Below, piece after piece: positions 1,926 to 60,146 of a stretch of DNA of 64,000 nucleotides. Both the position numbers and the translations under genes were made by a program. Source of the DNA: an uncultured Thermotogaceae bacterium. GTDB lineage: Bacteria > Thermotogota > Thermotogae > MWEM01. The DNA is taken from assembly GCA_964566085.1 (NCBI GenBank), contig CAZMHO010000001.1:3887-67886 (forward strand), given 5' to 3'. Position 1 is the first letter of the stretch; each line of letters opens with the position of its first letter. Under the pieces are notes generated by a model that was not told where the DNA came from, did not search any database, and saw only the letters and a program-made list of their open reading frames with translations.

Positions 1926-2277
1926 TGGTGGAGGCGGGGGGAATTGAACCCCCGTCCGAAAACGGTTCATAACAGGTTTCTACGTGTGTATCGCCTGATC
2001 ATTGTCGGGTTCCTTCAGTACAGGCGCAAACTGCAAAAACCCCAATCCCGTAGATGTCCTCGGATTCCCCGGGAGAGAAACCTGAGTGAGCCCGAATTGC
2101 TCACGCCCTTACGAAATGTCTCGAGCTAAACGTTTCGCAGGACGGCAACTTACATTAAGCTGCTAACGCAAATTCTGGTTCGACATTTGTCGATGTTCCG
2201 CCTTTTTAATGAGGCATGCGGAGACCTCAACACGCTTCCCGTTAATCTTCCGTCCCCGTCGAACCCTTTTCGCCCCC
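1926..2277 (-). ncRNA. ssrA: tmRNA (SsrA), about 352 nt
   Basis: Minus-strand 5' end GGGGGCGAAAAGGGTTCGACGGGGA matches the tmRNA acceptor/D-like start. An internal tag ORF ends ...GAA TTT GCG TTA GCA GCT TAA (…EFALAA-stop). The 3' end GGACGGGGGTTCAATTCCCCCCGCCTCCACCA is a T-arm plus acceptor with encoded CCA. Confidence 0.85.
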
Positions 2278-3356: not shown

Positions 3357-3357
3357 T

Positions 3358-3864: not shown

Positions 3865-3868
3865 CGCG

Positions 3869-4312
3869 TTATCCTTTGTTTTCGGGTTGCTCACCGGGTT
3901 CGTCATCGGAGAAAGTGGGTATCTGAGAATCCTCTTTTAGCATCAACTCCACATCCAAAACGGTGATCATAACCTTTTCGACTTTAATCAAACCGGTCAT
4001 GCCTTCCACTTCTTCCTTGATCGTCCTTTGGATTTTTTCCGCCACCTCTCGAATGCTTTTATTCAGCAGGAGCTTTGTGCTGACTGAGATCGAGACGGTG
4101 TTCTCGTTGCCTTTTCTATCCATCGAGACGGCTTTTTTCTCTTTCTTCTGGTCTTTGACGATTTCTTCTATCTTACCTAGAGCGACATTTATCAAATCCA
4201 GTATAACGGAGTCCGCGATTTCTATGGTTCCGTACTGCGTCTGTTTACCGGGCAACGTTTGTGGCTCTTCTTTCACCGGTGAAGGGGATACTGGCATTTT
4301 TTCTTCTTCCAT
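3869..4312 (-). CDS. Asp23/Gls24-family alkaline-shock/envelope-stress protein
   Basis: GTIEIADSVILDLINVALGKIEEIV and later EVEGMTGL resemble Asp23/YqhY. Its position upstream of nusB mirrors B. subtilis yqhY-nusB. Confidence 0.6.
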   Translation of the reverse strand: MEEEKMPVSPSPVKEEPQTLPGKQTQYGTIEIADSVILDLINVALGKIEEIVKDQKKEKKAVSMDRKGNENTVSISVSTKLLLNKSIREVAEKIQRTIKEEVEGMTGLIKVEKVMITVLDVELMLKEDSQIPTFSDDEPGEQPENKG

Positions 4313-19455: not shown

Positions 19456-19543
19456 GGCGGAGAGAGTGGGATTTGAACCCACGTACGGGGTTAGCGTAAC
19501 ACACTCTCCAGGCGTGCGCCTTAGACCGCTCGGCCATCTCTCC
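19455..19543 (-). tRNA. tRNA-Ser (anticodon GGA), CCA encoded
   Basis: Minus-strand GGAGAGATGGCCGAGCGGTCTAAGGCGCACGCCTGGAGAGTGTG…GTGGGTTCAAATCCCACTCTCTCCGCCA. Anticodon loop CT-GGA-GA, long variable arm, T-arm GGTTCAAATCC. Confidence 0.85.
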
Positions 19544-32807: not shown

Positions 32808-33764
32808 ATGAAAAAAAACCCAATAACGAAGGGTATTTTGATAATCAATATCTTTATGTTCGTTTTGAGCGCCATTTCAAGCGGCGGCGCTTTTTTGACT
32901 TCGCTTTGGAGCGGGGGAAACGTGCAAACGCTTCTCAAATCAGGCGCGTCCTTGGGTATCTACGTGCAACAAGGGCAAATTTACCGCTTGGTTTCTTCGC
33001 TCTTTCTGCACGCCGGGTTAATACACCTGATCTTCAATTCCTATGCGCTCTACATGTTTGGAACCATCGTAGAATCCATCTTCGGTTCCAGGCGCTTTAC
33101 CGTCATCTACTTAGCGGCGGGTTTGGTTGGCGCCCTGTTGACACAATTTTTTTACCCCGGTGTCGTATCTGTCGGCGCAAGCGGCGCGATCTTCGGCCTC
33201 ATCGGGTTGTTGTTTGCCTTAGGATTGAGAAAGGATACGCCGAGACGGTTGACGCCTGTGACCGGAACGGCATTGTTGCCTATGATCATTATCAACCTCC
33301 TGCTCGGGTTCACGGTGCCAGGCATCAACAATTTGGCGCATATCGGGGGCTTGGCAACCGGTTTTCTTTTCGGGTTGGTTCTCACCCCTTTCAAAATCGT
33401 AATGAAGCAATGGTCGTTTCTTTGGACCGTTCTCGCCATCGTTTGTGTTGTCGTTTCGCTGGTTTGTATCAGTTACATCTTCCTCTTTCCAGAACCCGAT
33501 ATCGAACAGATCATCAGTTTTGCCAATCAATACGCCGAAGTGTTGTCTCTGCTTTCAGGGGCTCGAAATTTTCAGCGGTACAGCTACTACTATGAGCTGT
33601 TACGTCCATTTGACGCGGCTACGCAGGTCTTGAAAGAAGACATCCAAAGGTATATTGACTCAAGTGGGAGCAGTGAAAGGCTCAACGATCTTCAACTCCG
33701 GTACAAAAACTGGCAGGACGACATACTCAAACGGTATGGATCTTGGATAAAGATAGCGCCATGA
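32808..33764 (+). CDS. Rhomboid-family intramembrane serine protease with a C-terminal soluble extension
   Basis: GASGAIFGLIG (catalytic Ser) and AHIGGLATGFLFG (catalytic His), six TM helices. Confidence 0.8.
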   Translation: MKKNPITKGILIINIFMFVLSAISSGGAFLTSLWSGGNVQTLLKSGASLGIYVQQGQIYRLVSSLFLHAGLIHLIFNSYALYMFGTIVESIFGSRRFTVIYLAAGLVGALLTQFFYPGVVSVGASGAIFGLIGLLFALGLRKDTPRRLTPVTGTALLPMIIINLLLGFTVPGINNLAHIGGLATGFLFGLVLTPFKIVMKQWSFLWTVLAIVCVVVSLVCISYIFLFPEPDIEQIISFANQYAEVLSLLSGARNFQRYSYYYELLRPFDAATQVLKEDIQRYIDSSGSSERLNDLQLRYKNWQDDILKRYGSWIKIAP

Positions 33765-34843
33765 GAGTTCGGTTGATCGATATCCTTTTCCTCTTTGCTT
33801 TCTTCGGATCGGTTTTCTCCGGCGAAGCATCCGTACTGAACCTTCTATCGGAAGTGGCATTAGAGGGGAAATGCGTTCAGCTTTTTATTGATGAAGCGTA
33901 TCAGCGCGCGTTCGTGATCGATTATCTGAACCACGTCGTGCATGCTGTCGACTTGAAAACGAATCGCATCAGCCATCGTATCTCACAATCGGCTTATCCT
34001 GTCTATATCCTTTTTCACGCCGATCGCCTCTATATCTCGGATTTTTGGGGGCATAAGGTGGATGTTTACGATCGCGAAAGTCTCCTGCGCGTTGCTTCGA
34101 TACCGTGTAAACGCGGACCGGGATATATGATCGAGAGAGGCGGCCTGCTCTATGTCGCGAGTCAATTGGAGCCGGTTTTGCAGGTTTTCTATCTTCCGAC
34201 CGGCGAAGAGTTGTATGCCTTTCCGCTGGAAGGCCGCGTACCGAAATTCTTTCTGCTGGACGATTTAGTCATTCTTCCGTACTATGACAACTACCATACT
34301 TGGTCTCGCGACTTCGAGATGGTCGATTCGGTGGCCTTCCTGAACCCGACTACCTTTTCGAGGTGGGACATCGAAGGGAAGATAAAGAAGCCTCTCCATA
34401 TCCTCCGTATCGAGTCTGGCAAGTATTTGGTCGTCGGGTATCTAGATAATGCCATCTGGAGAGTGGATTGGGGCCAAAAAGAAGTCACGGAGTTTGTTTC
34501 TTGGAAAGGACACAGCCACATCATGGATGTCGCCATGTTCGCCGGGTATATCGCGATCTCTTCGATGAGCGAAGACGACCTCTTTTATTTAAGCCTTCCC
34601 TCCAAAGACCTACACCGGATCACGCTTGGGGGAGGCCTTATCGATCTTGAGCCTTATCAAGATCGATACTTGTTTGCAGCCGGTAACTTTGACAACACCT
34701 TATATGTTCTCGACGCTCAATATAGGCTGGTCGAAACCTGGCCGTTGAAAGATTATCCCATCGCGATGAAAGCCTATCATAACCGATTGGCCATACTCAA
34801 CATGGATAACCCTGTGCTAGCGATCTACGAAATAGGAAGGTAA
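33743..34843 (+). CDS. Secreted beta-propeller-like hypothetical protein
   Basis: A signal peptide (MRVRLIDILFLFAFFGSVFSG), then repeated about 40-aa aromatic/Gly units (YVxx, LYxA) suggestive of NHL/YVTN blades. Confidence 0.35.
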   Translation: MDKDSAMRVRLIDILFLFAFFGSVFSGEASVLNLLSEVALEGKCVQLFIDEAYQRAFVIDYLNHVVHAVDLKTNRISHRISQSAYPVYILFHADRLYISDFWGHKVDVYDRESLLRVASIPCKRGPGYMIERGGLLYVASQLEPVLQVFYLPTGEELYAFPLEGRVPKFFLLDDLVILPYYDNYHTWSRDFEMVDSVAFLNPTTFSRWDIEGKIKKPLHILRIESGKYLVVGYLDNAIWRVDWGQKEVTEFVSWKGHSHIMDVAMFAGYIAISSMSEDDLFYLSLPSKDLHRITLGGGLIDLEPYQDRYLFAAGNFDNTLYVLDAQYRLVETWPLKDYPIAMKAYHNRLAILNMDNPVLAIYEIGR

Positions 34844-37897: not shown

Positions 37898-38626
37898 TTA
37901 TCGTTTCTTCCGCTTGAGTGGCGTCGCGTGCGGGATGTTCTGAGGGGTGGGAAGCTTCCTCTTCTTCTTCGTGGGGGTGGGGCTGTGCGGACTGACGGTT
38001 CTCTTCTTTATCAGAACGGGGTTTGTTGTGGTAAAGGTTTGCTTTTGATTTTTGAAGAGTATTTCCGCATTCAAGTACCGTGTGAATAACTTCTTTTCCT
38101 TCCGATATCCGGGCTTCGCAAAGAAGAACCCTAAGATGCCCTGCCATTCCAACACCCAACCCCAAATCGAAATCCCTTCGATAGCGGCGCGATAAAAGAT
38201 ATTCTCAAACTCGAATCCCATGAGGTAGTAGGCGGTAAACAAAAAGAAGAAGGCGAAGACCATTTCCGCGATGGCCAATGTGTTTGACTTGCCGATCTCT
38301 TTGTTGAGTTGGAAGATATCCATGCGGATATTGTTGCGAAAGCCTTGTTCAACCATCTTTTCGGCCGTCGCGTTTCGTTTATCCTCCGGGACTTCGATCG
38401 AGATGCGAATCGGATACTTAAGGGGTATCTCTTTCGAGCAATAGTCCAAATAGTCTGTCAAATCCGGGTGTAGATCGCGCCGGCGAAAGGGAGAAGGATC
38501 CCATTCGTTGAAGATTTCGTCGTAGTGGTCGATGGTGATTTCTATGGTAAAGGTTCCGCTTTCCGGGTCATAGGGGAAGATGGAACGCAGGTAGTTTAAG
38601 TCTTTGGAAACACGAATAAAAGCCAA
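37898..38626 (-). CDS. Hypothetical membrane protein (soluble N-terminal domain, 2 TM, poly-basic C-terminal tail)
   Basis: TM helices LAIAEMVFAFFFLFTAYYLMGF and ISIWGWVLEWQGILGFFF, and a tail KKKRKLPTPQNIPHATPLKRKKR. No recognised family. Confidence 0.35.
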   Translation of the reverse strand: MAFIRVSKDLNYLRSIFPYDPESGTFTIEITIDHYDEIFNEWDPSPFRRRDLHPDLTDYLDYCSKEIPLKYPIRISIEVPEDKRNATAEKMVEQGFRNNIRMDIFQLNKEIGKSNTLAIAEMVFAFFFLFTAYYLMGFEFENIFYRAAIEGISIWGWVLEWQGILGFFFAKPGYRKEKKLFTRYLNAEILFKNQKQTFTTTNPVLIKKRTVSPHSPTPTKKKRKLPTPQNIPHATPLKRKKR

Positions 38627-41689: not shown

Positions 41690-41783
41690 CTCCGACCAAA
41701 GGATAACACAAGCCGGTTGACATTTCTTGACTAAAAACGACGAAAAACCGGCTTTCGCCGGTTTCTATACGTGTCTTCTATGA

Positions 41784-42341
41784 TTAGCCTTCGAATTCTA
41801 TAAGTCCGATACGACCATTCTTCCGTTTATAGACGAGGTTGATTTCATCGGTGGCGTCATTCTTGAAAACGAAGAAGTCGTGGTCTAACATATCCATCTG
41901 CATAATCGCTTCTTCCACGCCCATCGGTTTTAAGAAGAAACGTTTCGTTCGGACGACCTCGAAGTCTTTTTCCTTCTCTTCATCTTTTTCGATGAGCGGA
42001 GGGGTCATCTTCGCGTATTCTTCACCGATACCAATGACTCCCGCCTTATGCCGCAGCTGCTTTTTTTCTTTGTACTTTTTCAATTTGGTTTCCATTGCAT
42101 CGACCGCTTTGTCGATCGAAGCATAAACATCCGCGGTTTTTTCCTGGACCCGTAGGGTGCCTCCCCGAATCAAGACGGTGATCTCCGCCGTAAAATTTTC
42201 TCTTTCTTTTTGTAGGCGCATATCCACTTTCACATGGTCGCCTTCCGGTAGGGTTTTGTCCAATTTTGAGATTTTTTTGTCCGCATACTCTTGAATCGAG
42301 TCACTGGGACTAAAACCTCTCGTGATTAGCCGATTATCCAT
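41784..42341 (-). CDS. hpf: Ribosome hibernation promoting factor (long form)
   Basis: The S30AE domain (ITRGFSPSDSIQEYADKKISKL…FTAEITV) plus a C-terminal dimerisation domain; a terminator hairpin lies downstream. Confidence 0.85.
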   Translation of the reverse strand: MDNRLITRGFSPSDSIQEYADKKISKLDKTLPEGDHVKVDMRLQKERENFTAEITVLIRGGTLRVQEKTADVYASIDKAVDAMETKLKKYKEKKQLRHKAGVIGIGEEYAKMTPPLIEKDEEKEKDFEVVRTKRFFLKPMGVEEAIMQMDMLDHDFFVFKNDATDEINLVYKRKNGRIGLIEFEG

Positions 42342-42357: not shown

Positions 42358-43389
42358 TCATTTTTTTTCAGCTTCTGTGACCTCGAATAGATCGAAAACC
42401 GGATTTGATGGTAAACGCCTTTTTAACTCTTGCCTCATTCGATCATTCTTAAAACTTCTTTTCGCGCCGAAACTATTGACGTAAATCCCGATTACCGGTA
42501 TCGGGTATAAAACGGCCAGACGTAGCCCGCCTGCCTGCATTTTCCGGAAGAGGCCGATATCCACCTGAAGGCACGTGCCATCGCGTACGATCATCTCGGT
42601 TTCGATCCTTTCCTGAATGAGTTTCTCCGCGATCCCCTGGGTGAGCGCCCCTTCCAAGTACACGGCTTTTGCACGGTCCAACTGCTTTATGATCTGAGGG
42701 TTTTGCAGTAACGTCCCTGCATAGGAGATCGTTTTTCCCTCTTCGTAGAACAAGATCACAGGTGAAAATGCATCCCTACGCTCTTCAATCCTCTTCGCAC
42801 ATTCCGGTTCGCACGAGAGTCTCTCCAACCGCTCGACCAAATAAACGGTTCGCTCTATGATCTCTTCAAAGGTTCCTTGAGATTCGGCGCCTGTCACCAC
42901 TAAGACGTAATCGGCAACCGTTTTCTGAGCATGGCTTAAACGGTTGAACGCGCCATCCACCAACACCCGGTCGCACAACCCGTGACCCAAGAAACGATCG
43001 GCTATCTCAGTCAAGTGATCCAAACCGCCTGGGTTGATGAGCTCGACGGTCGTGTCCTCGAGCGCTTTCACGATGATCGGTCTGCCGGCGGCGGTTTCAA
43101 AAGGGAAAACCTCGGCTGCTTCCAAAAGGGCTGACGCTTTGAGCGCCCGTTCTCCTGTCAGCGCATAGTTACCCTTATGGAGTATGATCTTCGGTTTGGC
43201 GCGGGCGTCTAGTACGTCCACCTCTTCCCCGTCTCTTCCGATGCTTAAAAGGAAGGTCGATTGAGAACTTTGCGACCAGATACGTGACAGCCAGTTTAGT
43301 ACGGTCGTTTTTCCGATATTTTTTTCGAGTCCTAAGATCGCATACCGCTTATGAAGCGGAAAGCTTATTGCGAATGCTTCTTTTTCCAC
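42358..43389 (-). CDS. Hypothetical ATP-binding protein (DTBS/CobQ-like P-loop near the N-terminus)
   Basis: ILGLEKNIGKTTVLNWL is a Walker-A-like motif, with VLVDGAFNRL…LVVTGAESQG downstream. The start overlaps the kamA stop by 25 nt. The family is not identified. Confidence 0.35.
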   Translation of the reverse strand: MEKEAFAISFPLHKRYAILGLEKNIGKTTVLNWLSRIWSQSSQSTFLLSIGRDGEEVDVLDARAKPKIILHKGNYALTGERALKASALLEAAEVFPFETAAGRPIIVKALEDTTVELINPGGLDHLTEIADRFLGHGLCDRVLVDGAFNRLSHAQKTVADYVLVVTGAESQGTFEEIIERTVYLVERLERLSCEPECAKRIEERRDAFSPVILFYEEGKTISYAGTLLQNPQIIKQLDRAKAVYLEGALTQGIAEKLIQERIETEMIVRDGTCLQVDIGLFRKMQAGGLRLAVLYPIPVIGIYVNSFGAKRSFKNDRMRQELKRRLPSNPVFDLFEVTEAEKK

Positions 43390-44717
43390 TCTTCGACACG
43401 GTGCAGACGGGTTGTTTCCGACGAAACTAAGCTCTTTTTGTCGCCGCTGAGCATCAGGGCCAGTCCATTCGTGCTTTTACGGTTCTGTTCCAATAGGTCA
43501 TTCGGTTTTGCGGAGGAATGATAGTCCCGGGGCTCGTCGTAGACGAACAACCCCCCTTCATAGTTCCGTAAGAGGACTTTGTTCTCCCCGATCGAAAGAA
43601 GGTATTGGGGCATCACGGGAATTTTTCCGCCACCGTAAGGCGCGTCGATCACGTAGGTGGGGACGGCTAACCCCGACGTGTGGCCCCGCAAATACTCCAT
43701 GATCTCCAAGCCCTTCGCAACGGTGGTCCGGAAGTGATAAAGTCCCTTTGAGAGGTCGCATTGGTAAATATAATAAGGGCGAACGCGATTCTTTACCAAA
43801 AGATGCACCAGTTTCTTCATAATCTCCGGGTGGTCATTGACGCCTCGTAAAAGCACCGATTGATTTCCCAGGGGAATCCCGCCGTCCGCGAGAAGGGCTA
43901 ACGCTTTTTCAGAAGCGGCGGTCATCTCATTTGGGTGGTTAAAATGCGTGTTCACCCATATGGGATGGTATTTTTTCAACATCGAAACGAGCGCTTCATC
44001 GATCCTCTGAGGCAGGACAACCGGAATGCGCGAACCAATTCGGATCATTTCGACGGAAGGCACCGCTTTGATCCTTTGGATGATTTTTTCCAAATACGCA
44101 GTGGTCAGCGTAAAGGGGTCTCCTCCGGAAAGAAGCACGTCTCGCACTTCGGAATGCTCTTTCAGATACTCAACGGCTGCATCCACGTGAGCTAAGGGTA
44201 ACGCACTATCCGTTTCCCCGGCCCTACGACGTCTGGTACAGTGCCGACAATACATGGAACACATATCGGTCAGCAGGAGCAGTACGCGGTCCGGATATCG
44301 GTGGGTGAGTCCCGGGACGGGGGAATCGATATCTTCGTGCAGCGGATCGAGCATATCTTCTTTTTGCACTTCTAGTTCGTTCAAGGTCGGTACCGCCTGG
44401 ATGCGAATCGGGTCCAACGGGTCCCGGGGATCGATTAAGGATGCGTAATAGGGGGTTATCGCCATTCTCAAGCTGTCAAGGCTGCGGGCAATGGCCATTT
44501 TCTCTGATTCCGAGAGCGGCAGCACTTTTTCCAAGGTAGCCACGTCCATTATCCGGTTCTGTATCTGCCAAGTCCAGCTGTTCCACTGTTCAGGGGTTAC
44601 GTTGTTCCAAAGTTCGATCGATTTATAATCTCTCAAAACTGAAAACCTCCTGTTTAATATTCTGTTTGATTCTCTATCTTTCGAAGGATCTCCCGCTTGA
44701 CAGACTCCGGAACCCAC
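43365..44717 (-). CDS. kamA: KamA-family radical-SAM aminomutase (lysine 2,3-aminomutase-like)
   Basis: CSMYCRHCTRRR (CxxxCxxC), a PLP-binding region, and N-terminal WNxVTPEQWNSWTWQIQNRI. The annotated 5' end overlaps coaD by 64 nt, so the true start is probably an internal TTG/GTG near 44650. Confidence 0.75.
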   Translation of the reverse strand: MGSGVCQAGDPSKDRESNRILNRRFSVLRDYKSIELWNNVTPEQWNSWTWQIQNRIMDVATLEKVLPLSESEKMAIARSLDSLRMAITPYYASLIDPRDPLDPIRIQAVPTLNELEVQKEDMLDPLHEDIDSPVPGLTHRYPDRVLLLLTDMCSMYCRHCTRRRRAGETDSALPLAHVDAAVEYLKEHSEVRDVLLSGGDPFTLTTAYLEKIIQRIKAVPSVEMIRIGSRIPVVLPQRIDEALVSMLKKYHPIWVNTHFNHPNEMTAASEKALALLADGGIPLGNQSVLLRGVNDHPEIMKKLVHLLVKNRVRPYYIYQCDLSKGLYHFRTTVAKGLEIMEYLRGHTSGLAVPTYVIDAPYGGGKIPVMPQYLLSIGENKVLLRNYEGGLFVYDEPRDYHSSAKPNDLLEQNRKSTNGLALMLSGDKKSLVSSETTRLHRVEEWKKKHSQ

Positions 44718-45148
44718 GGTTCTATCTTTCCGCCATTGAGCGCGATTTCTTTTACCAAACTCGAAGAGATAAAGGAGTATTTTGTGTCGGTCATTAAAAA
44801 AAACGTATCGAAGGGATCGAACATGCGACGATTAGCGGCGGCCATTTGCATCTCATACTCAAAGTCCGACACGGCCCTTAACCCCCGAATAATGACGTTA
44901 TGTCCCGTTGAACGGGCATAATCGACCAAAAGTCCGTGATAGCTACTGACGCGAATACTGGGTATATTTGTAAACACGTTCCGGATCATGCTGACGCGTT
45001 CTTCAACGCTAAACATCGTATGGGCTTTGGCGCGATTGTTCATCACCAGCACAATCAACTCCGAAAACACTTTCGCGGCCCTTTCGGCAACATCGATATG
45101 GCCGTATGTGATTGGATCGAAAGTCCCCGGGTACACTGCGATCGACAC
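44654..45148 (-). CDS. coaD: Phosphopantetheine adenylyltransferase
   Basis: AVYPGTFDPITYGHIDV (H/T-x-G-H nucleotidyltransferase motif). Confidence 0.9.
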   Translation of the reverse strand: MSIAVYPGTFDPITYGHIDVAERAAKVFSELIVLVMNNRAKAHTMFSVEERVSMIRNVFTNIPSIRVSSYHGLLVDYARSTGHNVIIRGLRAVSDFEYEMQMAAANRRMFDPFDTFFLMTDTKYSFISSSLVKEIALNGGKIEPWVPESVKREILRKIENQTEY

Positions 45149-45166: not shown

Positions 45167-47422
45167 TCACTGGACGATATGAATCTTCCAGTTCTCCGCT
45201 TCAGTTTGGTTTTCCGTTGTGCAGTTCTTCTCCGTTTGGGTTATCGTAAAGTAAGTCCGAAAGGACGTCGTCGCCCCGAATGAGGTTGCGGGGATGAGGC
45301 CGGTGCGGAATAAAACCTTTCCGTCGTACCGATAAACCTCCTCCAACGGATAGGATGTGGCGCCGGTCTGACCTTCTACGGTCACTTCGCCGATTAATAC
45401 CACACCCGGACGCCATTCTTCCACTTCCGATTCGATAATCACGTAATGAGTCGGGGAGATGTAAAGCTCATTGCCGGGGGGTACTTGAAGGAGGCCGTTT
45501 CCGCGGTGATCTGTAATGATCAGGTTTCTCCCTCTCATAATCGGTAAGAGAAACCCGTAGTTGAAATCGACCGGTTCTTCCTTTCCAAGAAGCAATACCC
45601 GAGCGCCTATCTGTTTAGAGGCGTCCGAAACCCGCACAGGAAGATAGCAGCGGATGGAACTTTCGTCTTCGAAACAGAGGCCGCCTTTTTCCGCTATCGT
45701 CTGCTCGGTCAAGTATTCTTCGCCGAGGACCATCCAAAAACGGTCGATCGCTTCCCGGTCGAGAAATCCAAAATTGATCGTTGCGCCAGAAGAATCCAAA
45801 GGTCTATCCGGCTGGTATGAGCCGTTTACGACGTTTCCGCCTCGATCCAACTTGAGCAACTGTTTGGCGGGGAGTTGATCGACGCTCATCAATCGGTTCA
45901 GAAATGCGGTCCAACCCGTTTCTTGCGCAAAAGCCAAGCGATCGTATTTATCTTTTCCGTAAACATTCCACAACCCGCCTTTTACCGAGAGCGGATACCA
46001 GAAGCTTAATCCTTTCATCTGAGCGGTATTCTTTTTTCCCATTTTCTTTCCATTTTCAAGGATATCTTCACAGAAACCGTAATGATCATTCCGAAGTACG
46101 GCTTCCCGTAATCGCTCCTCCGCTTCGCTGATGAACCCCAATAGCTGCTGAAGCATCGGCTCTTGAAGATCGTAGACGTACCCTTCTTCTCTGCTTTTGA
46201 CTTTATAGTTGTCGGTGAAGAGCGAACCGTTCAAACAGTTTTTCAAGACGGTCAACCAGGAATGTGCATCCTTGTAGTCACAGTAATCGAAGGCCAGCGT
46301 ATTCCAGTCCAGCGTAAAACCCAGGTCTTTTTTTACCGCTTCTTTCAAGAAAGCTTCGGTCAGGAGCAATGTAAGCTGATCGAAGACCTTCTTTAACGAT
46401 AGACTGAGAGACTCAAGCCGATACATTTCGATCACGGAACACCCCATCCCTTTTTGCTCCTGGATTAGGTCTTCCTCCATTCCCGCCATGGCGGCGCAGA
46501 AAAAGTCATAAGACTCTTCGGCAAAGGTCATGACATCCGGAGTGGGAAGGTTCTTCAGACACGAGAATAGCAGACCCAGTTCTGGGTAGCCGGTAGGGCT
46601 CAAGCCCTCGAATACGACAGCGGTGTCGAAATGGTCTTTCACTTGGAAGAGGTTTTCAAGCAACCCGCCGTAGGAGCCCGCAGACAGAAGCAAATCCATC
46701 TTTCTGCCTTCCAGCATCCCGTCGAATTCTAAAATAGAGGTCGTTTGGTCATAGAAAACATCTTCCGGATAAGTACCCCGGGCATCCAAGCGCCATCCGT
46801 GCGCGTCATCGATGAGGTATAAAACCATATTTTCGGACGGAAAGGCTTTCGAAGTAACTTCTAAAGCTTTTTTTACGCCTTCCGAAAAGTCAGGAGCGAA
46901 GGGACGATAGAAGGGGCGAACCGTATCTTCGGCAAGGTAATAACTCTCGAAATTTCCGGAGTCATTTTTTTGCATAAAGACCATCTCGATCGAATGGATC
47001 GGCGCGAAGTAAACGGCTAACTCCGCTTCCGTCATCGGATCGGAAAAAGAAAGCACGGTCAGATTCCAAGGCCGATCATCGAAGGGAACAACTTCCAGCG
47101 GAAGCTCCTTAAAGAAGCCGGCGTTGGCCGTAAACGTTCCTTCGTATGAGAAAGCGAGGTAATGAGGCTCAGCGTACTCGGCTTTTATTCCCCAGTCGCC
47201 GACCGACAACCCTTCCAGGCGAAAAAAACCCTCGCTATCCGTCAGCGACTCTTTGCGCACTTCCGGACTCGCGAGATTCCAAGCCGTTACGATGATATTC
47301 GGAACCGACTCTCCCAAGAGGCTAACTTTACCTTCTAAGGTGTAAAGAGAGATTACCGTACAATTTGTTAATGAAAACACGAACATCAGGACAAGGAAAA
47401 CTCCACCGATCAGTCTTTTCAT
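45167..47422 (-). CDS. Large lipoprotein (751 aa) with an N-terminal CarbopepD_reg-like domain and a possible clostripain (C11)-like peptidase core
   Basis: A lipobox (…FSLTNC), a GKVSLLG…SEGFFRLEGL beta-sandwich, and LYLIDDAHGW (His) and YDFFCAAMAG (Cys) resembling the C11 catalytic dyad contexts. The family assignment is tentative. Confidence 0.3.
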   Translation of the reverse strand: MKRLIGGVFLVLMFVFSLTNCTVISLYTLEGKVSLLGESVPNIIVTAWNLASPEVRKESLTDSEGFFRLEGLSVGDWGIKAEYAEPHYLAFSYEGTFTANAGFFKELPLEVVPFDDRPWNLTVLSFSDPMTEAELAVYFAPIHSIEMVFMQKNDSGNFESYYLAEDTVRPFYRPFAPDFSEGVKKALEVTSKAFPSENMVLYLIDDAHGWRLDARGTYPEDVFYDQTTSILEFDGMLEGRKMDLLLSAGSYGGLLENLFQVKDHFDTAVVFEGLSPTGYPELGLLFSCLKNLPTPDVMTFAEESYDFFCAAMAGMEEDLIQEQKGMGCSVIEMYRLESLSLSLKKVFDQLTLLLTEAFLKEAVKKDLGFTLDWNTLAFDYCDYKDAHSWLTVLKNCLNGSLFTDNYKVKSREEGYVYDLQEPMLQQLLGFISEAEERLREAVLRNDHYGFCEDILENGKKMGKKNTAQMKGLSFWYPLSVKGGLWNVYGKDKYDRLAFAQETGWTAFLNRLMSVDQLPAKQLLKLDRGGNVVNGSYQPDRPLDSSGATINFGFLDREAIDRFWMVLGEEYLTEQTIAEKGGLCFEDESSIRCYLPVRVSDASKQIGARVLLLGKEEPVDFNYGFLLPIMRGRNLIITDHRGNGLLQVPPGNELYISPTHYVIIESEVEEWRPGVVLIGEVTVEGQTGATSYPLEEVYRYDGKVLFRTGLIPATSFGATTSFRTYFTITQTEKNCTTENQTEAENWKIHIVQ

Positions 47423-53548: not shown

Positions 53549-53606
53549 ATCAGCAGTAAAACCGTAAGACAATCGAAAGCGATTCGTGATAAAAGAGGAG
53601 AACCTT

Positions 53607-56429
53607 ATGAATAAGAGGCTTTTGGTTAGCATGTGTTTCTTCGCCATCTTTCTTTCGATTTCTGTAGGTCAGTATGCGCTCAAGCCTGGAGACCAGATCG
53701 AGGTGTACAATTATACCTACCCGGAACTCAATCAACCGGCTTTGGTGGGAAAGGATGGCTTTATCCAGCTAAAGCTGATCGGCTCTGTGAAAGCGGAGGG
53801 TATGAGCTTGGAAGAGCTGGCTGCGTTCACGAAGAGCAAACTGACGCCGTTCGCGCCGGAATCCCGGGTGACGATCCTATTGACGCAAATCTACCCGGTC
53901 AAGGCCTATATTATCGGCGAAGTGAACCAAGCGACGATTATCGATTTGACATATGAAGAGAACCCGACCCTTCTGCAGGCATTGAGTTTTTGCGGCGGAG
54001 TGAAGACGTCGGCCGATTTGAAAAATATCCTCCTTCGGCACGAGGATGGCTCCTTCGATACCGTCGATATTTCCGGAACGCTCGAATTCGGTCTTTGCGA
54101 GGACATAATCGCGATTCGCCCCGGGGATGTCATCGTGGTTCCCAGAAAATACGAACGTCGGGTTTATGTGTTCGGAAGTCTGGAGCAATCGGGAGTCATC
54201 TATTTTGAAGAAAAGGAACCGATGGTTTTGGAGGTTCTGTTATCCAAGGTTAAGTACGATCTGCGCACTTCGGAACCCACGATCTCTTTGATTCGCGACG
54301 GATACGAAACGCCCTTAACGCTTGAGGGTACCCGTTCCGTCGTAAAAAAAACCGAACTCCGAAGCAACGATATTTTGCTGATCCGTAAACTGCAGCCGAA
54401 GTATTTGTACGTGACCGGTCTATCGACCGCGAGCCGTATTGATTTCGAAAGAGAGGAAGAGATGACGCTGCAAACGTTGTTCGGAAAATTGGGGTTTGCG
54501 CCGCTCTCCGCTCTGGAGATTCGCATCACTCCGGCAAATGGGCAAGCAAGGACGTTATCTATCAACCGTTCGATACCGGTTTATCGATTCGGATCGGGAG
54601 ATATCGTCGAGTTTCCCCCTCAGAACTACGTTTACGTGAGTGGAAACGTAAGCAAAACAGGAAAGATAGATTTCTCCTACTCAGAACCGTTTACCTTGGA
54701 AACGCTTCTGGCTCTAGTGGGAGTGGGCGAAGAAGAAAGCGTCCAACTGACGGTGATCAATCCTGACGGCCGTCGTTTTCTATACCAATATCCCGAACGG
54801 AGAGAGACGCTCACACCCCTCGAACGAGGCGCTTTCGTTCAGTTCCCGTACAAACGGTACGTCTTTCTGGCCGGTTCGATTTCCGAAGGCAACGAGCGGC
54901 AACTGTATTTTCCGAACGAAGAAGAGATGACATTAAAACGCGCCTTAGCCAAAGCAAGCATCGATCTGTCCCAAAACAACTACGGCGTCACGGTGATCCG
55001 CAGTCAGGACCAATACCCGTTCGATCTGAAAAGCGCCCTTCTCTCCGAGGGGAATTTTTTGTTGGAAACGGGCGATATCCTGTTTTTTGAGAAAGAGACC
55101 GATCGGTACGTTCATCTCGTCGTTTCCGAAGGCGATAGCCGAAAGTTGCATTTCGCGCCCGAAGACCCTTTAGACCTATTCACCGTTCTCGTCAAATATG
55201 AGAAAACGGGGGAACTGACCGGTGATCAGATCAAGATCATCGATCCGTCTGGCCGCATTTTTTTGAGTTCGGTCAAAGCGGTTTTGAATCAGGAGGAAAA
55301 CTACTCCCTGTCTCCCAAAAGCCTTGTCGTAATCAACGCTAACGAACGGCGCGTTTTTGTCTTAGGAAACGTGGAGCATAGCGGAGAGATACTCTTCGGT
55401 CAAGACGAACCCTTTACCTTGACCACGCTCGTCGCCAAATGCAACCCCATCCTGAACGAAAAAACCGAGAACATCCTGGTTAAGCGTCGCGCCGGCGTAA
55501 CTGTTTTGGATCTTCAGGATGTCTTGGACGTTTCAACGGTATTCGCGTTGGAAAAAGACGCGGTCGTGTACTTTAAACCGTACGAACCAAAAGTCGTGAC
55601 GATCTTCGGACAGGTAAAAATCCCCGGACTTTTATCCTTCGGCAAACTTGAACCGCTGAATCTGATGACCGTTTTGTCTAAGGCCGGAGGGTTGCTTTCC
55701 GATGCCAGCCAACGCATCAAAGTGGTCGGGGCTGACGGCAAAAGCACTATCTATAACCTGATTTCTGAACCGAATCCGGAAAGGCTCTCGATCGCTCCCG
55801 GCAGTTATGTTGTGGTAGAGAACAATCAGGGGCAGTATATCGCCATTTTGGGAGACGTGAAGAACCCGGGGCTTCATTACCTAAAAAAAGACGAACTCTC
55901 GCTATTGGAATTGCTGAGCGCGCAAGGGGGGGTCAGCGATTGGACCCTAAACACGACATTGGAACTTACCCGCTCGTCGGGAGAGAAAGAGCTCATAAAT
56001 ATCGATCTGGACCCCTCGTCGCTAAACAAGACGAAGGTACGGCCGGGAGATACGGTTTTCGTATACCCGAGCAGCCGCTTGAAAGTCTACGTGTTCGGAG
56101 CCGTGGTGAATCCGGGCATCGTCCCCTATCGATCGAAGATGACGCTATTAGAGTCTTTGCTCTATTGTAGAGGGCCTTCTTCTTCCGCATACATGAAGAA
56201 AATTATGGTCTTCCCCGGGGGTGTCGACGCGAATCCGATCCTGTTGGACTATTCCGGATTCAGGAACGAGCGAGGCGTCGCAGACTACTTCCTGGAGCCG
56301 GGAGACGTCGTTTACGTGCCCCAAAACGCATTAGTGGAGATTAAAGATGTCGCCGGATTTCTGGGTACCATGCTGACGCTCGTGAATTCTGGGTTCACGT
56401 TAATGGATAAGCTGCAAAATTTACCGTAA
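53607..56429 (+). CDS. Wza/KpsD-like polysaccharide export protein with about 10 tandem SLBB (beta-grasp) repeats
   Basis: An N-terminal signal peptide plus a Poly_export (PES) motif LKPGDQIEV…DGFIQLKLIGSVKAEG. Repeated about 85-aa units of the form [RK]xYVxGxVxxxGxxxFxxxEPxTLxxLLxxxGG recur about 10 times. The ATG at 53607 has a strong RBS AGAGGAG; the track ORF begins at a GTG inside that RBS. Confidence 0.7.
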   Translation: MNKRLLVSMCFFAIFLSISVGQYALKPGDQIEVYNYTYPELNQPALVGKDGFIQLKLIGSVKAEGMSLEELAAFTKSKLTPFAPESRVTILLTQIYPVKAYIIGEVNQATIIDLTYEENPTLLQALSFCGGVKTSADLKNILLRHEDGSFDTVDISGTLEFGLCEDIIAIRPGDVIVVPRKYERRVYVFGSLEQSGVIYFEEKEPMVLEVLLSKVKYDLRTSEPTISLIRDGYETPLTLEGTRSVVKKTELRSNDILLIRKLQPKYLYVTGLSTASRIDFEREEEMTLQTLFGKLGFAPLSALEIRITPANGQARTLSINRSIPVYRFGSGDIVEFPPQNYVYVSGNVSKTGKIDFSYSEPFTLETLLALVGVGEEESVQLTVINPDGRRFLYQYPERRETLTPLERGAFVQFPYKRYVFLAGSISEGNERQLYFPNEEEMTLKRALAKASIDLSQNNYGVTVIRSQDQYPFDLKSALLSEGNFLLETGDILFFEKETDRYVHLVVSEGDSRKLHFAPEDPLDLFTVLVKYEKTGELTGDQIKIIDPSGRIFLSSVKAVLNQEENYSLSPKSLVVINANERRVFVLGNVEHSGEILFGQDEPFTLTTLVAKCNPILNEKTENILVKRRAGVTVLDLQDVLDVSTVFALEKDAVVYFKPYEPKVVTIFGQVKIPGLLSFGKLEPLNLMTVLSKAGGLLSDASQRIKVVGADGKSTIYNLISEPNPERLSIAPGSYVVVENNQGQYIAILGDVKNPGLHYLKKDELSLLELLSAQGGVSDWTLNTTLELTRSSGEKELINIDLDPSSLNKTKVRPGDTVFVYPSSRLKVYVFGAVVNPGIVPYRSKMTLLESLLYCRGPSSSAYMKKIMVFPGGVDANPILLDYSGFRNERGVADYFLEPGDVVYVPQNALVEIKDVAGFLGTMLTLVNSGFTLMDKLQNLP

Positions 56430-56453
56430 AAGCCGAAAAAATGGGGGGATTTC

Positions 56454-58622
56454 GTGCCTTCGTCCGAGCGCGATGAGATCTACGAAAAAGAACCGAACGA
56501 GTTAACGATAAACGATCTGTTCCGCATGTTCAAAAGGCGGATTGTGTGGTTTTTACTCGTCGTGGTCCTTACCGTTATCGCCACGATCCTCTATGCCTTC
56601 ATCTCTCCGCGGGTCTACGAGTCGAGCGTGACGATAAAACTGTCGGCCGCCTCTTCTTCCGGCATCTCTGGTTTCTTGCAGGATCTTCCTTTTGGAATCG
56701 GCGGATCTTCGAGCGGTGGCAGCATTTTAACGGAGATAGAGATGATCACGAGCAAAGGCAACATCGAAAAGGTGATCCGAAATATCGGTTTGTTGGATAT
56801 TCTGATACCGGCGGAGAAAAGAAAACCTGGAGAAGCGGAGCAGGCAATGTTCTCGCGCGCCGTAAGCGCCTTGGCGGAACAGATCAGCGTGAACCCGGTT
56901 AAGAACACCAATATCGTCAAGATTACCGTTGCCTTATCAGAAGGGGATCTCGCAGCGCGTATCGCCAATGAGTTGGCTTCGGTATACAACGAAAGTTTGT
57001 ACGATATCAACAAAACGCAAGCGAATGAAAAGCTGTCGTTCATTGAGAAGCAGCTGCCTGTGAGTAAAGCCGCTCTTGACTTCTCTATACGGAAGGTGAG
57101 AGAGTATAAGGAAGCGAAACAGATCTTTCTGATATCCGAAGAAGCGAAGGCTTTGTTAGAGGTAATCGCGGACTTCGACAAGCAGTTGAATGCAAAAAAA
57201 ATGGAATTGCGAACGACTCAGGCAGGGATTGCGGCGATCCGGGAAAAACTCTCCGCAACAAACGAAAAATTGATCTCCTCGGAAACGATCACGATCAATC
57301 CGCTTGTCAGCGAATTGCGGAGCAAGTTAACGAATCTGAATATCGAATTGGCCGCTTTGGAGAAACTCTATCCGGCCACCGATCCTCGAGTTCTACAAAA
57401 AAGGAAGTCGATCGAAGAGACTCAGAAAGAGCTATCGAAACAAGTCGTCAATATTGTCACGTCTCAGCAAAAAACAGACAACCCGATTTACGCGACGCTT
57501 ATGGGAGAGTTGGTCATGAAAGAGATCGACTATCAACTCTACGCCGCGACGATTGAAGCTATTGAAAATACCCGCAAGGAATACGACCAAAAAATGAGAC
57601 AGCTCCCCGCTCTCGAGCAGGAACTCACCGAGCTGCTCCGAGAGGAGAGCATCAACGAGCAGGTCTATGTCGCCCTCTACAAGAGTTATATCGACGCCCA
57701 GATTTCCGAAGCCGGGATCGTCAACCAAACCTATATCGTGGACGCAGCGGAACCCCCTTTGAATGCCGCGAAACCTCAAAAAAAACTCATCGTGGCGATA
57801 GGCGGGGTTTTGGGAGTATTCCTGGGCATCCTGTTCGTATTCGTTCTCGAATACCTTGAAAAACGGATTATGGATACCGAGGAGCTCGCGAAGATGACGG
57901 GGGACGCGGTCCCGATCTTCGGCTTTTTCCCGAAAACCAAAACCGGCCTTCTTCCGATTAATCCCCAGAATCCCGATCGCCTCCTCTCCGAAGCGGCTGA
58001 GACAGCCTATACGCGATTCCATTTAAGAAAACATGAACGCCCTTCGAAAGTTATCGCGATTACGAGTTCCGAGAGCAACACCGGGAGTTCTACACTTGCC
58101 TTCTACCTTGCGCAAACAATTGCTCGAAGCAGGGAACGCGTTCTCCTGATCGACGGGGCGCTACGATATACCAACCTCACGAAACGCATCGGATTGCCGA
58201 ATCACCAGACCGGCTTTTCTCAAGCCATTTCGGAGGGCTTCTCCGAACGGGTTCCTGTGGTTTCGCTACAACCTTATCTGGACTTTCTGCCGGCCGGAAA
58301 GCACGACGCGCATCCGTTGGCCCTGTTCCGAGGAAAACGGTTTGAAGAGTGGATAACCGCCATGGCGAAAGAATACGATCGAATTCTCATCGATACGCCG
58401 GCGATGAACCGGGATGTGGATACGTCCATGCTTATCGCGAGAACGGAAGGCGTTTTTTTGGTGGTCACGATTGGAAAAACCGGGAAACGCGCTTTTAGAA
58501 AGGCGCTGAACGATATTGGTTACGCGCAAATCCCTTTGTTGGGCCTTTTGGTCAATAAATGCCAAATCGGTAAAGATTTCTCCCTTCGAAAAAATGAAAA
58601 TCGATCCGAGATTCAAGCCTAA
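56454..58622 (+). CDS. Wzc/GumC-like polysaccharide co-polymerase with a degenerate BY-kinase-like ATPase domain
   Basis: A Wzz N-terminal TM, a long coiled-coil periplasmic region, a second TM (LIVAIGGVLGVFLGILFVFVL), then a CapB-like domain. The Walker A position reads ITSSESNTGSST (no Lys) and there is no C-terminal Tyr cluster. Confidence 0.65.
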   Translation: MPSSERDEIYEKEPNELTINDLFRMFKRRIVWFLLVVVLTVIATILYAFISPRVYESSVTIKLSAASSSGISGFLQDLPFGIGGSSSGGSILTEIEMITSKGNIEKVIRNIGLLDILIPAEKRKPGEAEQAMFSRAVSALAEQISVNPVKNTNIVKITVALSEGDLAARIANELASVYNESLYDINKTQANEKLSFIEKQLPVSKAALDFSIRKVREYKEAKQIFLISEEAKALLEVIADFDKQLNAKKMELRTTQAGIAAIREKLSATNEKLISSETITINPLVSELRSKLTNLNIELAALEKLYPATDPRVLQKRKSIEETQKELSKQVVNIVTSQQKTDNPIYATLMGELVMKEIDYQLYAATIEAIENTRKEYDQKMRQLPALEQELTELLREESINEQVYVALYKSYIDAQISEAGIVNQTYIVDAAEPPLNAAKPQKKLIVAIGGVLGVFLGILFVFVLEYLEKRIMDTEELAKMTGDAVPIFGFFPKTKTGLLPINPQNPDRLLSEAAETAYTRFHLRKHERPSKVIAITSSESNTGSSTLAFYLAQTIARSRERVLLIDGALRYTNLTKRIGLPNHQTGFSQAISEGFSERVPVVSLQPYLDFLPAGKHDAHPLALFRGKRFEEWITAMAKEYDRILIDTPAMNRDVDTSMLIARTEGVFLVVTIGKTGKRAFRKALNDIGYAQIPLLGLLVNKCQIGKDFSLRKNENRSEIQA

Positions 58623-58631
58623 AGGTTTCCG

Positions 58632-60146
58632 ATGAAAGCGATCATCCTTGACGGTTATGTGGACGAACCGGCGCTGTTTGGAGTCCCTCCGTTCGTTTCC
58701 ACGTACGTTCGATACGCCTGGGGCGCGTATCGTCATTTCGGAGTAGATCCAGAGTATTGGACAATCGACCAGATCAGGAAAGAGAACTCATGGGACGACC
58801 TCAATCAGGCCGATCATTTGGTGATCATCGGAGGCGTCAGCGTTCCAGGGAAGTACGCGGGAGGCGCGCCGCTTTCTTTCAACGAGCTCTCTAAGATCGC
58901 CGAAGGCTGCCCCGCTCCGCTGAAGATTCTATTCGGTGCTTTCACCTACCGTACTGAATCCGAAAAACGCAAAAACGAAAGGAAATCCGGAAAGTCCCGG
59001 ACAACTCAGAATAACCCTCTGAGAGCTATCGAATGCATCGTATCAGGAAACCTCGAGACCTATCTGTACTATCTTCTATCGGGTAAGAACCCGCCCGAGG
59101 ATATCGGAAAAGAGACGGATAAAACCGAACTGTGCGCCTTGGCCGGCGCGGGGTTAGTCAACCGGCATCCGAACTATCCGAATCTCATCTGCGAGCTCGA
59201 AGTGTCTTCCGGTTGCGAACGACGGTCTCATTGCAGTTTTTGTAGCGAACCCCTCTTTCATAAGCGCTTCTCGTCGCGAGACCCGGAAGCGTTGTTATCG
59301 GAAGCGGCTGCTTTGGGAGAACATGGGGTGAAACACTTTCGTTTGGGTCGTACAGCCAATATAAGCGCCTATGGCGAACGCGGCGACGGTCCCGATCCCG
59401 TGGCCCTGCGCAGAGTTTATCAAGGGTTTCGAGAACGGGTGCCCGGTCTGCGCACCTTGCATACTGACAACGCCAATCCCCAATACATCGCCGAGCACCC
59501 GACCGAGTCCGCCAAGATCCTCGAGACGATTGCGGAGTATAACACGTCCGGCGACATCCTGTCTTTCGGTGTCGAGTCTTTCGACGAAACCGTCATCCGT
59601 TCCAATAACCTTGGTACGCGGGTGGAAACGATCTATCAAGCCATCAAATTGGTCAACGAGATCGGGGGGCTCCGAAAAGAAGGGGTTCCAGCGCTCCTTC
59701 CGGGAATTAACCTCATCGCCGGATTGATCGGCGAGACGAAAAGTACTTTTTCGAAGAACCTCGAAGCGTTGAAGACGATCGTGGGAAACGGATGGCTCTT
59801 ACGCCGCATCAACCTCCGGCAGGTGATGGTTTTTCCAGAGACCCCTTTATGGATTTACCGTCAGTCCCATTACCTCCCTTTTCATCACTTGGAGTTCCAG
59901 CATTTCAAAGAGAAGGTCCGGAAGGAAATCGACCGCCCGATGCTTCAACAGGTCTTCCCGGCCGGAACGGTCATTCGGGACGTCGTGATGGAGTACCACG
60001 AAGGCAATAACACTTTCGGAAGGCCCTTGTGGACCTACGGGATCTTGATCGGTATCCGGGAAAGGCTTCCTATCGGCGAAAAGGTATCCGTTATCGTTAC
60101 AGAACACGGCTATCGATCGCTCACAGGCCAAAAGATTCCCGCTTAA
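58632..60146 (+). CDS. Radical-SAM-like Fe-S enzyme with an N-terminal Rossmann/B12-binding-like domain and a non-canonical Cys motif
   Basis: SSGCERRSHCSFCSE (C-x5-C-x2-C, not CxxxCxxC), with a TIM-barrel-length body. The N-terminal ~110 aa (KAIILDGYVDEP…LVIIGGVS) resemble flavodoxin/B12-binding folds. Confidence 0.55.
   Translation: MKAIILDGYVDEPALFGVPPFVSTYVRYAWGAYRHFGVDPEYWTIDQIRKENSWDDLNQADHLVIIGGVSVPGKYAGGAPLSFNELSKIAEGCPAPLKILFGAFTYRTESEKRKNERKSGKSRTTQNNPLRAIECIVSGNLETYLYYLLSGKNPPEDIGKETDKTELCALAGAGLVNRHPNYPNLICELEVSSGCERRSHCSFCSEPLFHKRFSSRDPEALLSEAAALGEHGVKHFRLGRTANISAYGERGDGPDPVALRRVYQGFRERVPGLRTLHTDNANPQYIAEHPTESAKILETIAEYNTSGDILSFGVESFDETVIRSNNLGTRVETIYQAIKLVNEIGGLRKEGVPALLPGINLIAGLIGETKSTFSKNLEALKTIVGNGWLLRRINLRQVMVFPETPLWIYRQSHYLPFHHLEFQHFKEKVRKEIDRPMLQQVFPAGTVIRDVVMEYHEGNNTFGRPLWTYGILIGIRERLPIGEKVSVIVTEHGYRSLTGQKIPA

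Follow-up and report, generated by a model that had tools for sequence, protein, structure and literature searches.

Lysine-fermentation clusters of the clostridial type unite at one locus kamA, encoding the radical S-adenosylmethionine (SAM) and pyridoxal 5'-phosphate (PLP) enzyme lysine 2,3-aminomutase, with kamDE, encoding the B12-dependent β-lysine 5,6-aminomutase, and with kdd, kce, kal/kat and atoDA. In published cluster maps, the two genes placed between kamA and kamDE under the labels 'HP' and 'mutS' are kamB and kamC (PMC3149608). KamC is a MutS_V-domain protein that NCBIfam (NF052383) names a reactivase ATPase, and KamB and KamC together are named there as the 5,6-aminomutase reactivase. 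The locus considered here, a kamA gene followed by a kamB-like gene for a 343-aa protein, lies in a 64,000-nt stretch of DNA (the window) from an uncultured Thermotogaceae bacterium (MWEM01; GCA_964566085.1, contig CAZMHO010000001.1, positions 3,887-67,886 of the forward strand). The kind of system is already known, the pair being the front of the clostridial-type kamABCDE block. What is new is a kamA-kamB module of just two genes that stands apart from kamC, kamDE, kdd and kce, with overlapping open reading frames (ORFs) and with a divergent KamB clade and a KamA without its Zn site, all conserved across Thermotogota.

KamB in lysine-fermentation clusters

A scan of one genome per GTDB species resulted in 581 relatives; the best 80 loci were examined, their genes being identified through tblastn with Kam, Kdd, Kce, Kal and Ato reference proteins. 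The 78 distant loci (26-33% identity) come from Clostridia, Anaerolineae, Fusobacteria, Asgard archaea and others, and in nearly all of them kamB sits inside a lysine-fermentation cluster, the usual order being kal-kce-kdd-kamA-kamB-kamC-kamD-kamE(-atoDA). Flanks of 5 kb or more on either side are available for 45 of the distant loci; KamD, KamE and Kdd each occur in 39 of these, KamA in 37, Kce in 34 and KamC in 30, and every full-flank locus without KamD was also without KamA. The immediate downstream neighbour of kamB is KamC in 49/81 loci and KamD in 20/81. Conservation of the two genes side by side in other genomes, which the original prediction for this locus had proposed to check, is borne out, in that the pair recurs across Thermotogota and KamA is the immediate upstream neighbour of kamB in 49/81 loci. 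The adjacency of kamA and kamB is ancestral to the kam cluster. At four loci kamB adjoins kamDE with no kamA nearby (L057 and L066 with full flanks, L027 and L030 with shorter ones), and the family is therefore tied to KamDE.

Like the KamB of these clusters, the window protein is a full-length KamB homologue with kamA immediately upstream; it differs in having no KamC, KamDE, Kdd or Kce nearby, in the overlap of the two ORFs, in belonging to a divergent clade and in lying in a housekeeping operon. Loci of Asgard archaea, Sporomusaceae and Desulfobacterales also have no adjacent KamC, yet their kamB remains within the kamDE cluster, in Asgard archaea directly beside kamD. The gene set that defines the clostridial-type cluster is not assembled at one locus anywhere in the 64 kb. 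The original prediction had set the locus apart from that cluster, which is right as to kamDE and kdd; it requires amendment in that the pair is homologous to kamA and kamB at the head of the kamABCDE block, because the 343-aa protein belongs to the KamB family.

The scan also brought several cluster variants to light. Many Asgard (Promethearchaeota) clusters have kamD directly after kamB and no kamC, and two Asgard loci encode a TPR-like protein of ~600 aa between kamA and kamB (L012, 6238-8061; L016, 4948-6717). In L028 from Sporomusaceae (2573-4046), and also in L029 and L054, a PAS/σ54-activator gene takes the place of kamC between kamB and kamD, the L028 copy being interrupted by an ambiguous base. 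Loci L055, L065 and L076 hold kamB-kamC only, and at L006 (5254-6728) KamC is encoded as two ORFs of 252 and 234 aa, corresponding to the N- and C-terminal halves of NF052383 and reflecting either a frameshift or a true split gene. An uncultured Brachyspira carries an orphan KamB-family gene (L061, 9962-10987; 238 bits) with no kamA, kamC, kamD or kamE within 10 kb. In the protein search with KamD, the best 120 matches were all Firmicutes-type or without a name; several relatives of Desulfosporosinus KamD (P0226-P0235) are KamD-KamE fusions of 795-811 aa (PF09043 + PF16554 + PF02310), and P0246 is a longer fusion of 886 aa.

The KamB-like protein

The 343-aa protein matches the NCBIfam model NF052386 (lysine 5,6-aminomutase reactivase subunit KamB) over its full length, residues 17-334 aligning with model positions 2-326 of 326 at 217.9 bits (cutoff 210, E 1.6e-64). 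All family-invariant motifs are kept in it, namely GxxKNxGKT, GRDGE..D, KP, DGAxxR and GALT. Within the P-loop, G20, K23, N24, G26, K27 and T28 are invariant among 23 sequences, and K23, G26, K27 and T28 among 73 sequences. Arg52 of the GRDGE motif gives way to M, L or W in Mesoaciditoga, Pseudothermotoga and Brachyspira. In the DGAFNR motif the alignments show no variation at D145 and G146 and very little at A147 and R150, and the β-strand at whose end this motif lies comprises residues 141-145 of the structure model. That AlphaFold model (predicted local distance difference test score, 92.9; predicted template modelling score, 0.90) is of an N-terminal SIMIBI-class P-loop nucleoside triphosphatase (NTPase) domain (~1-187) followed by a C-terminal α/β domain (~188-343). 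Since the profile match, the conserved motifs and the structure model agree, the protein is placed among SIMIBI-class KamB proteins, and its sequence makes it very probably a divergent member of that family.

Pfam assigns no family to the protein and gives sub-threshold matches to DUF6909 and AAA_26 only, the latter at 13.3 bits against a cutoff of 27 and over residues 15-47 alone, the P-loop. Searching 5.8 billion proteins returned 90 matches, nearly all labelled 'hypothetical' or without a name, and HMMER over 1.84 billion cluster representatives (50% identity) returned 1,465 at E<=1e-3 and just 14 at E<=1e-30. No solved structure matches the whole protein, and the α/β domain is without a confident structural relative; Foldseek against the PDB gave weak SIMIBI matches only (TM-score up to 0.33), and the fold likeness is not specific to DTBS, non-ligase SIMIBI proteins being equally similar. 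The proteins of the DUF1611/DgcN type and of the DTBS/CobQ type (AAA_26) differ from the window protein in domain order and in the second domain.

The Walker-A-like motif that the original prediction had placed about 20 residues from the N-terminus is there (GLEKNIGKTT, residues 20-29). Its description of the protein as DTBS/CobQ-like in character is fair for the P-loop and does not extend to membership of a DTBS/CobQ family, and the statement that the protein has no recognisable family is accurate for Pfam and mistaken for NCBIfam.

KamA, a lysine 2,3-aminomutase without the Zn site

Against TIGR03820, the AblA-type lysine 2,3-aminomutase model, KamA scores 577.7 bits (cutoff 525.4), while it falls below the cutoffs of the rival models for glutamate 2,3-aminomutase (470.6 vs 650), arginine 2,3-aminomutase (391 vs 600) and EpmB (TIGR03821, 225.5 vs 369.3). 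It aligns with the crystallised Clostridium subterminale enzyme (2A5H) at E 3.7e-161, the catalytic core being free of gaps, and keeps the equivalents of PLP Lys337, Asp293 and Asp330 (2A5H numbering). The two aspartates, which the original prediction had singled out for telling a lysine from a glutamate enzyme, are thus both in place. Reportedly, from studies by Lepore and colleagues in 2005 and by Ruzicka and Frey in 2007, Lys337 holds the PLP, and Asp293 and Asp330 bind the ε-ammonium group of lysine. Reportedly, from the work of Frey and Ringe, both aspartates are replaced in glutamate 2,3-aminomutase. Because the family scores and the active-site residues fit and the rival models stay below their cutoffs, KamA is, as judged from its sequence, a bona fide lysine 2,3-aminomutase, predicted to convert L-lysine to β-lysine.

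The inter-subunit Zn ligands of the C. subterminale enzyme, Cys268, Cys375, Cys377 and Cys380, are all lost in the window KamA, which has His at position 268 and in which CxCxxC is absent (PRDYHSSAKPNDLLEQ). The CxCxxC motif is missing from 12/12 Thermotogota KamAs that precede a kamB-like gene (loci including L001, L007, L008, L087-L094 and L096), and the clade of the window is also without the Cys268 equivalent, having His or Asn there, while all four Zn-site cysteines are kept in 50/62 cluster-embedded KamAs. The Zn site is not a requirement for membership of the lysine 2,3-aminomutase family.

In passing TIGR03820 and in standing outside a fermentation cluster, KamA resembles the lysine 2,3-aminomutases of AblA/AblB, which serve synthesis of the osmolyte Nε-acetyl-β-lysine, and of the Bacillus subtilis kamA (yodO) operon. 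The partner is unlike that of AblA/AblB, a P-loop NTPase instead of a GNAT acetyltransferase, and Pfam found no acetyltransferase domain among the major non-overlapping ORFs of at least 150 aa in the window. The original prediction had also excluded an EpmAB pair, in which an EpmB-type aminomutase and the lysyl-tRNA synthetase paralogue EpmA serve β-lysylation of EF-P, correctly: besides the score below the EpmB cutoff, no class II aminoacyl-tRNA synthetase-like (EpmA) ORF occurs in the window, where the aminoacyl-tRNA synthetase genes seen are class I only, of the W/Y type and GltX.

The detached pair across Thermotogota

Relatives of the window locus at 50-76% identity are few (L001, L007, L008 and L087-L091) and derive from digester and activated-sludge assemblies labelled Thermotogae or Thermotogaceae; all have the order coaD-kamA-kamB-like-hpf, without another kam, kdd or kce gene. 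A metagenome scan returned no relatives with the single protein and five loci with an alignment of the clade, every one of them the same pair. The nearest named KamAs are those of Mesoaciditoga (67%), Pseudothermotoga (65-66%), Athalassotoga (65%) and Thermotoga caldifontis (65%), and in each Thermotogota genome inspected the next ORF overlaps kamA, has no Pfam family and is 301-343 aa long. This ORF, a KamB-family member in every case, encodes 303 aa in Pseudothermotoga (16-nt overlap with kamA; 133.1 bits against NF052386), 323 aa in Mesoaciditoga (52-nt overlap; 156.4 bits) and 301 aa in Athalassotoga (34-nt overlap; E 3e-44 against a family hidden Markov model), the next gene in all three being dnaN. 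On L094, a 110-kb metagenome contig of the Joint Genome Institute (JGI), it encodes 343 aa, overlaps kamA by 25 nt, is followed by hpf and scores 210.7 bits; the L001 protein scores 178.4 bits. Taken together, the Thermotogota proteins reach 133-218 bits against NF052386, compared with 296-409 for cluster-embedded KamBs.

The ORFs of kamA and the kamB-like gene overlap in 11/11 Thermotogota pair loci, by 16 to 52 nt, and the overlap is 25 nt in L001, L007, L008, L087, L090 and L094 as in the window; canonical adjacent kamA-kamB pairs (n=48) have a median spacing of +40 nt and only four could overlap. The genes flanking the pair vary, being coaD and hpf in the window, a PEGA-domain gene and dnaN in Mesoaciditoga and Athalassotoga, and an Mrr-like gene and dnaN in Pseudothermotoga. 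Thermotogota keep only the kamA-kamB pair together, probably translationally coupled, amid housekeeping genes.

Within the clade, the ratio of nonsynonymous to synonymous substitution rates (dN/dS) is ~0.13 for the kamB-like gene, ~0.03 for kamA, 0.04-0.09 for coaD and 0.04-0.06 for hpf, values that are approximate because dS is near saturation. As judged from this ratio and from retention of the pair in four Thermotogota lineages (the digester lineage of the window, Pseudothermotoga, Mesoaciditoga and Athalassotoga), the kamB-like gene is evidently functional and under purifying selection, and it is the fastest-evolving gene of the string.

Gene boundaries and the transcription unit

The pair belongs to a tightly packed minus-strand string consisting of a 751-aa ORF, coaD, kamA, the kamB-like gene and hpf (Table 1), and the three co-directional ORFs of the original prediction were confirmed by their positions and by the coaD and kamA profiles. 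Of the two overlaps that it described, the 25-nt one between kamA and the 343-aa ORF is real and recurrent in relatives, and the 64-nt one between coaD and kamA is an artefact of extending kamA to its longest ORF, which begins at GTG 44717. An in-frame TTG at 44636 comes 9 nt after the Shine-Dalgarno sequence GGAGG (44650-44646); the equivalent start codon is TTG or GTG at five related loci, with the same spacer geometry; and a public protein identical to the window KamA (P0091) has 423 aa. On these grounds the GTG start was rejected, and the N-terminus read from TTG 44636 agrees with that of the crystallised enzyme. With kamA starting there, coaD and kamA lie 17 nt apart and do not overlap. 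At the other end of kamA, the N-terminal peptide MEKE(A/T)(F/Y)A of the KamB-like protein is kept in relatives, and the overlap of the two ORFs is probably a device of translational coupling.

Table 1. Features of the kamA-kamB-like locus in the window
Feature	Coordinates	Strand	Details
coaD, pantetheine-phosphate adenylyltransferase, 164 aa	44654-45148	-	TIGR01510 184.6 bits (cutoff 103.3); PF01467; stop TAA 44656-44654 (sequence reading)
coaD-kamA spacer, 17 nt	44637-44653	-	contains Shine-Dalgarno GGAGG
kamA, lysine 2,3-aminomutase (radical SAM/PLP), 423 aa	43365-44636	-	TIGR03820; 2A5H match
Radical-SAM [4Fe-4S] motif CSMYCRHC of KamA	44238-44261	-	aligns with Cys125/129/132 of 2A5H
Overlap of kamA 3' end and kamB-like 5' end, 25 nt	43365-43389	-	kamA stop TAA 43367-43365; ORF start GTG 43389
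kamB-like gene, 343 aa	42358-43389	-	NF052386
P-loop GLEKNIGKT, residues 20-28	43306-43332	-	family form GxxKNxGKT
GRDGE, residues 51-55, after strand β2	43225-43239	-	switch-I-like acidic motif; invariant in 23- and 73-sequence alignments
DGAFNR, residues 145-150, end of β-strand	42940-42957	-	Asp145 Walker-B-like
hpf, long ribosome hibernation-promoting factor, last of string	41784-42341	-	PF02482, PF16321, TIGR00741
Intrinsic terminator-like hairpin, 10-bp stem, GAAA loop, T-run	41743-41766	-	18 nt past hpf stop

The spacers from coaD to kamA, from kamA to the kamB-like gene and from there to hpf measure 17, -25 and +16 nt, and hpf holds the same position in L001, L007, L008, L087, L090 and L094. 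Between coaD and hpf no hairpin comparable to the one after hpf was found; because the strong terminator-like hairpin stands only after hpf, coaD, kamA, the kamB-like gene and hpf most likely form the end of one transcription unit. An Rfam scan near the operon detected no lysine or B12 (cobalamin) riboswitch, and promoter-like matches around it do not exceed chance level.

The 751-aa ORF directly upstream of coaD (45167-47422, minus strand) has no Pfam or NCBIfam family; its N-terminus is hydrophobic and signal-peptide-like and gives a sub-threshold match to CarboxypepD_reg. An ORF of the same length occupies this place in L001, and in L094 it is absent and CheB abuts coaD. The rest of the 64-kb window contains Rnf, flagellar rod, FTHFS, aminoacyl-tRNA synthetase, TsaE, GlpK, POR, capsule-export and similar genes. 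At 53586-60146 (plus strand) a Wza-like exporter (947 aa, multiple SLBB) and a Wzz/BY-kinase fusion (722 aa) precede a 504-aa radical SAM protein that is not assigned to a subfamily. Further ORFs without a Pfam family lie at 3358-3906 (minus strand, 182 aa), 33743-34843 (plus strand, 366 aa) and 37898-38626 (minus strand, 242 aa), and the sole Rfam matches in 64 kb are a tmRNA (163.9 bits; 1926-2277, minus strand) and one tRNA (19458-19543, minus strand).

Candidate functions of the pair

Because every KamB-family context points to radical aminomutases, the KamB-like protein is most likely, by analogy, a nucleoside triphosphate (NTP)-driven accessory factor of a radical PLP aminomutase. The operon from coaD through kamA, the kamB-like gene and hpf to the terminator would then host a detached module of the lysine-fermentation (kam) block. 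Much as other SIMIBI cofactor chaperones such as MeaB/MMAA, UreG, HypB and NifH-like proteins do, the KamB-like protein would spend NTP on keeping a radical PLP-dependent aminomutase competent, through release or exchange of a damaged cofactor and with no new covalent product, and its translational coupling with kamA would ensure that the two proteins are made together. The client would be the B12-dependent β-lysine 5,6-aminomutase KamDE, acting in a lysine degradation pathway whose genes are dispersed. In recombinant form KamDE suffers suicide inactivation induced by its substrate (PMC3958899), and a reactivating system is therefore to be expected. That the locus is a detached kamA-kamB module in a housekeeping operon, its client most probably a KamDE encoded elsewhere in the genome, stands a roughly even chance of being right; the weak link in this explanation is which enzyme the protein serves in this organism.

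Known cofactor-maintenance proteins offer analogies of function and of fold. The reactivases DdrAB, GdrAB and EutA are actin/Hsp70-fold ATPases, not P-loop proteins, and they are not among the fold matches of the 343-aa protein. Their resemblance to the proposed role is functional, in that DdrAB and GdrAB (diol and glycerol dehydratase) and EutA (ethanolamine ammonia-lyase) carry out ATP-driven exchange of the damaged cofactor after suicide inactivation (cited in PMC3958899). The G3E-type SIMIBI chaperones MeaB/MMAA, UreG and HypB have no family relation to the window protein and differ from it in the C-terminal domain, and the NKxD guanine-specificity motif is not present in the KamB-family alignment.

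A dispersed lysine pathway in Thermotogota is plausible. Vital et al. found the lysine pathway in several Thermotogae (PMC3994512), and a 5,6-lysine aminomutase (5,6-LAM)-class enzyme has been listed for Thermotoga (now Pseudothermotoga) lettingae, which has one, and for 4/6 Thermotogae genomes (PMC2667541 supplement), a class that may also take in ornithine 4,5-aminomutase. Papers on Pseudothermotoga elfii and Mesotoga do not mention lysine or an aminomutase. That possible breadth of the 5,6-LAM class is one of several points that weigh against KamDE as the client. Tblastn of the 64-kb window found homologues of kamA and kamB only, and no kamC (three KamC queries, E<=1e-3), kamD, kamE, kdd, kce, kal or atoDA; nor does KamC, KamD, KamE, Kdd or Kce occur within 8-10 kb of the pair at any Thermotogota locus. 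The score of the window protein lies only 8 bits above the equivalog cutoff of NF052386, and sister proteins in the same arrangement lie at or below it. In a rough neighbour-joining tree the Thermotogota KamB-likes and the Brachyspira orphan form a clade of their own apart from cluster-embedded KamBs, and the KamB-like protein evolves much faster than its neighbour, sharing 32% identity with that of L094 where KamA shares 73%. Further, no paper with experimental evidence for KamB function was found in the literature searched, and the origin of the NCBIfam name could not be traced.

Some of these same features would suit a dedicated NTP-dependent maintenance partner of KamA itself, the end product then being β-lysine, a possibility that we regard as rather unlikely. 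For the Thermotogota KamB-like clade, linkage is invariable with one gene alone, kamA, which overlaps in all 11 loci, across Thermotogota orders and despite changing flanks. Neither kamC nor kamDE is near, whereas kamB in other lineages nearly always adjoins one of kamC and kamD. The proteins of the clade are divergent and score at the KamB equivalog cutoff or under it, the KamAs themselves are a distinct subtype that has lost the Zn site, and several SIMIBI NTPases among the fold matches are metal or cofactor chaperones. Such a partner could expel the 5'-deoxyadenosine and methionine left by abortive cleavage of SAM, or help to reload the [4Fe-4S]/SAM/PLP site or to repair it. Stated for the whole clade, the proposal that Thermotogota KamB-likes are NTP-driven maintenance factors of the radical-SAM KamA, ejecting these products or restoring the site, is unlikely. 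In other phyla kamB accompanies kamDE with no kamA nearby (L057, L066, L027 and L030), at least one Pseudothermotoga relative has been reported to hold a 5,6-LAM-class enzyme, and we know of no reactivase for any radical SAM enzyme.

The remaining explanations would take the KamB-like protein away from aminomutase upkeep. β-Lysine might serve a non-fermentative use, as a compatible solute or an envelope or stress metabolite, with the KamB-like protein having taken up some unrelated NTPase function, for example that of a kinase or regulator; the setting among coaD and hpf, in a housekeeping and stress operon, the fast divergence of the protein and the passing of an AblA-type model by KamA fit this, but no AblB-type acetyltransferase was found among the window ORFs of at least 150 aa run through Pfam, and all nucleotide-binding and family-invariant residues are kept, which argues for a conserved biochemical activity and leaves the idea doubtful. 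The original prediction had instead suggested an ATP-dependent enzyme, in effect a DTBS/CobQ-like ligase, making amide or peptide products from β-lysine. This is very unlikely: no ATP-grasp, adenylation, CobQ or DTBS family is recognised, the AAA_26 resemblance concerns the P-loop only, the fold is as close to non-ligase SIMIBI proteins, and the 64 kb offer no substrate-handling partners and no acceptor-providing or export genes for such a product. Moreover, the homologues sit in a catabolic pathway in which each chemical step already belongs to another enzyme (PMC3149608, PMC3994512). A decaying, functionless remnant of a lost kam cluster, for which the rapid evolution of the gene and the local absence of the other cluster genes could speak, is highly improbable, and pseudogene status was rejected on the dN/dS value and motif conservation; four species of the clade, as well as three other genera of Thermotogota, have the ORF uninterrupted, and its overlap with kamA is conserved.

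Implications for the KamB family and for Thermotogota

For the locus itself, the finding mostly corrects 'unknown ATPase, possible ligase' to 'KamB-like accessory NTPase'. KamB is a named and essentially uncharacterised family, without a Pfam entry or a solved structure, and the Thermotogota arrangement amounts to a natural experiment in which KamB stands apart from KamC and KamDE and is translationally tied to KamA. If NTPases of the KamB type work without a B12 enzyme, automatic annotation of the Thermotogota clade as '5,6-aminomutase reactivase subunit' would claim too much, and a radical SAM enzyme, the 2,3-aminomutase, would turn out to have an accessory factor. Should maintenance of KamA prove true, an enzyme with SAM as a recyclable cofactor would for the first time have a 'reactivase', a mirror of the B12 reactivases, and one would have to ask whether canonical KamB, too, serves KamA besides, or instead of, KamDE. 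If KamB-type NTPases do not work without the B12 enzyme, the locus would be the front end of a dispersed lysine degradation pathway in digester Thermotogota, an unsurprising outcome and a useful one for metabolic reconstruction of the route from lysine to butyrate and acetate.

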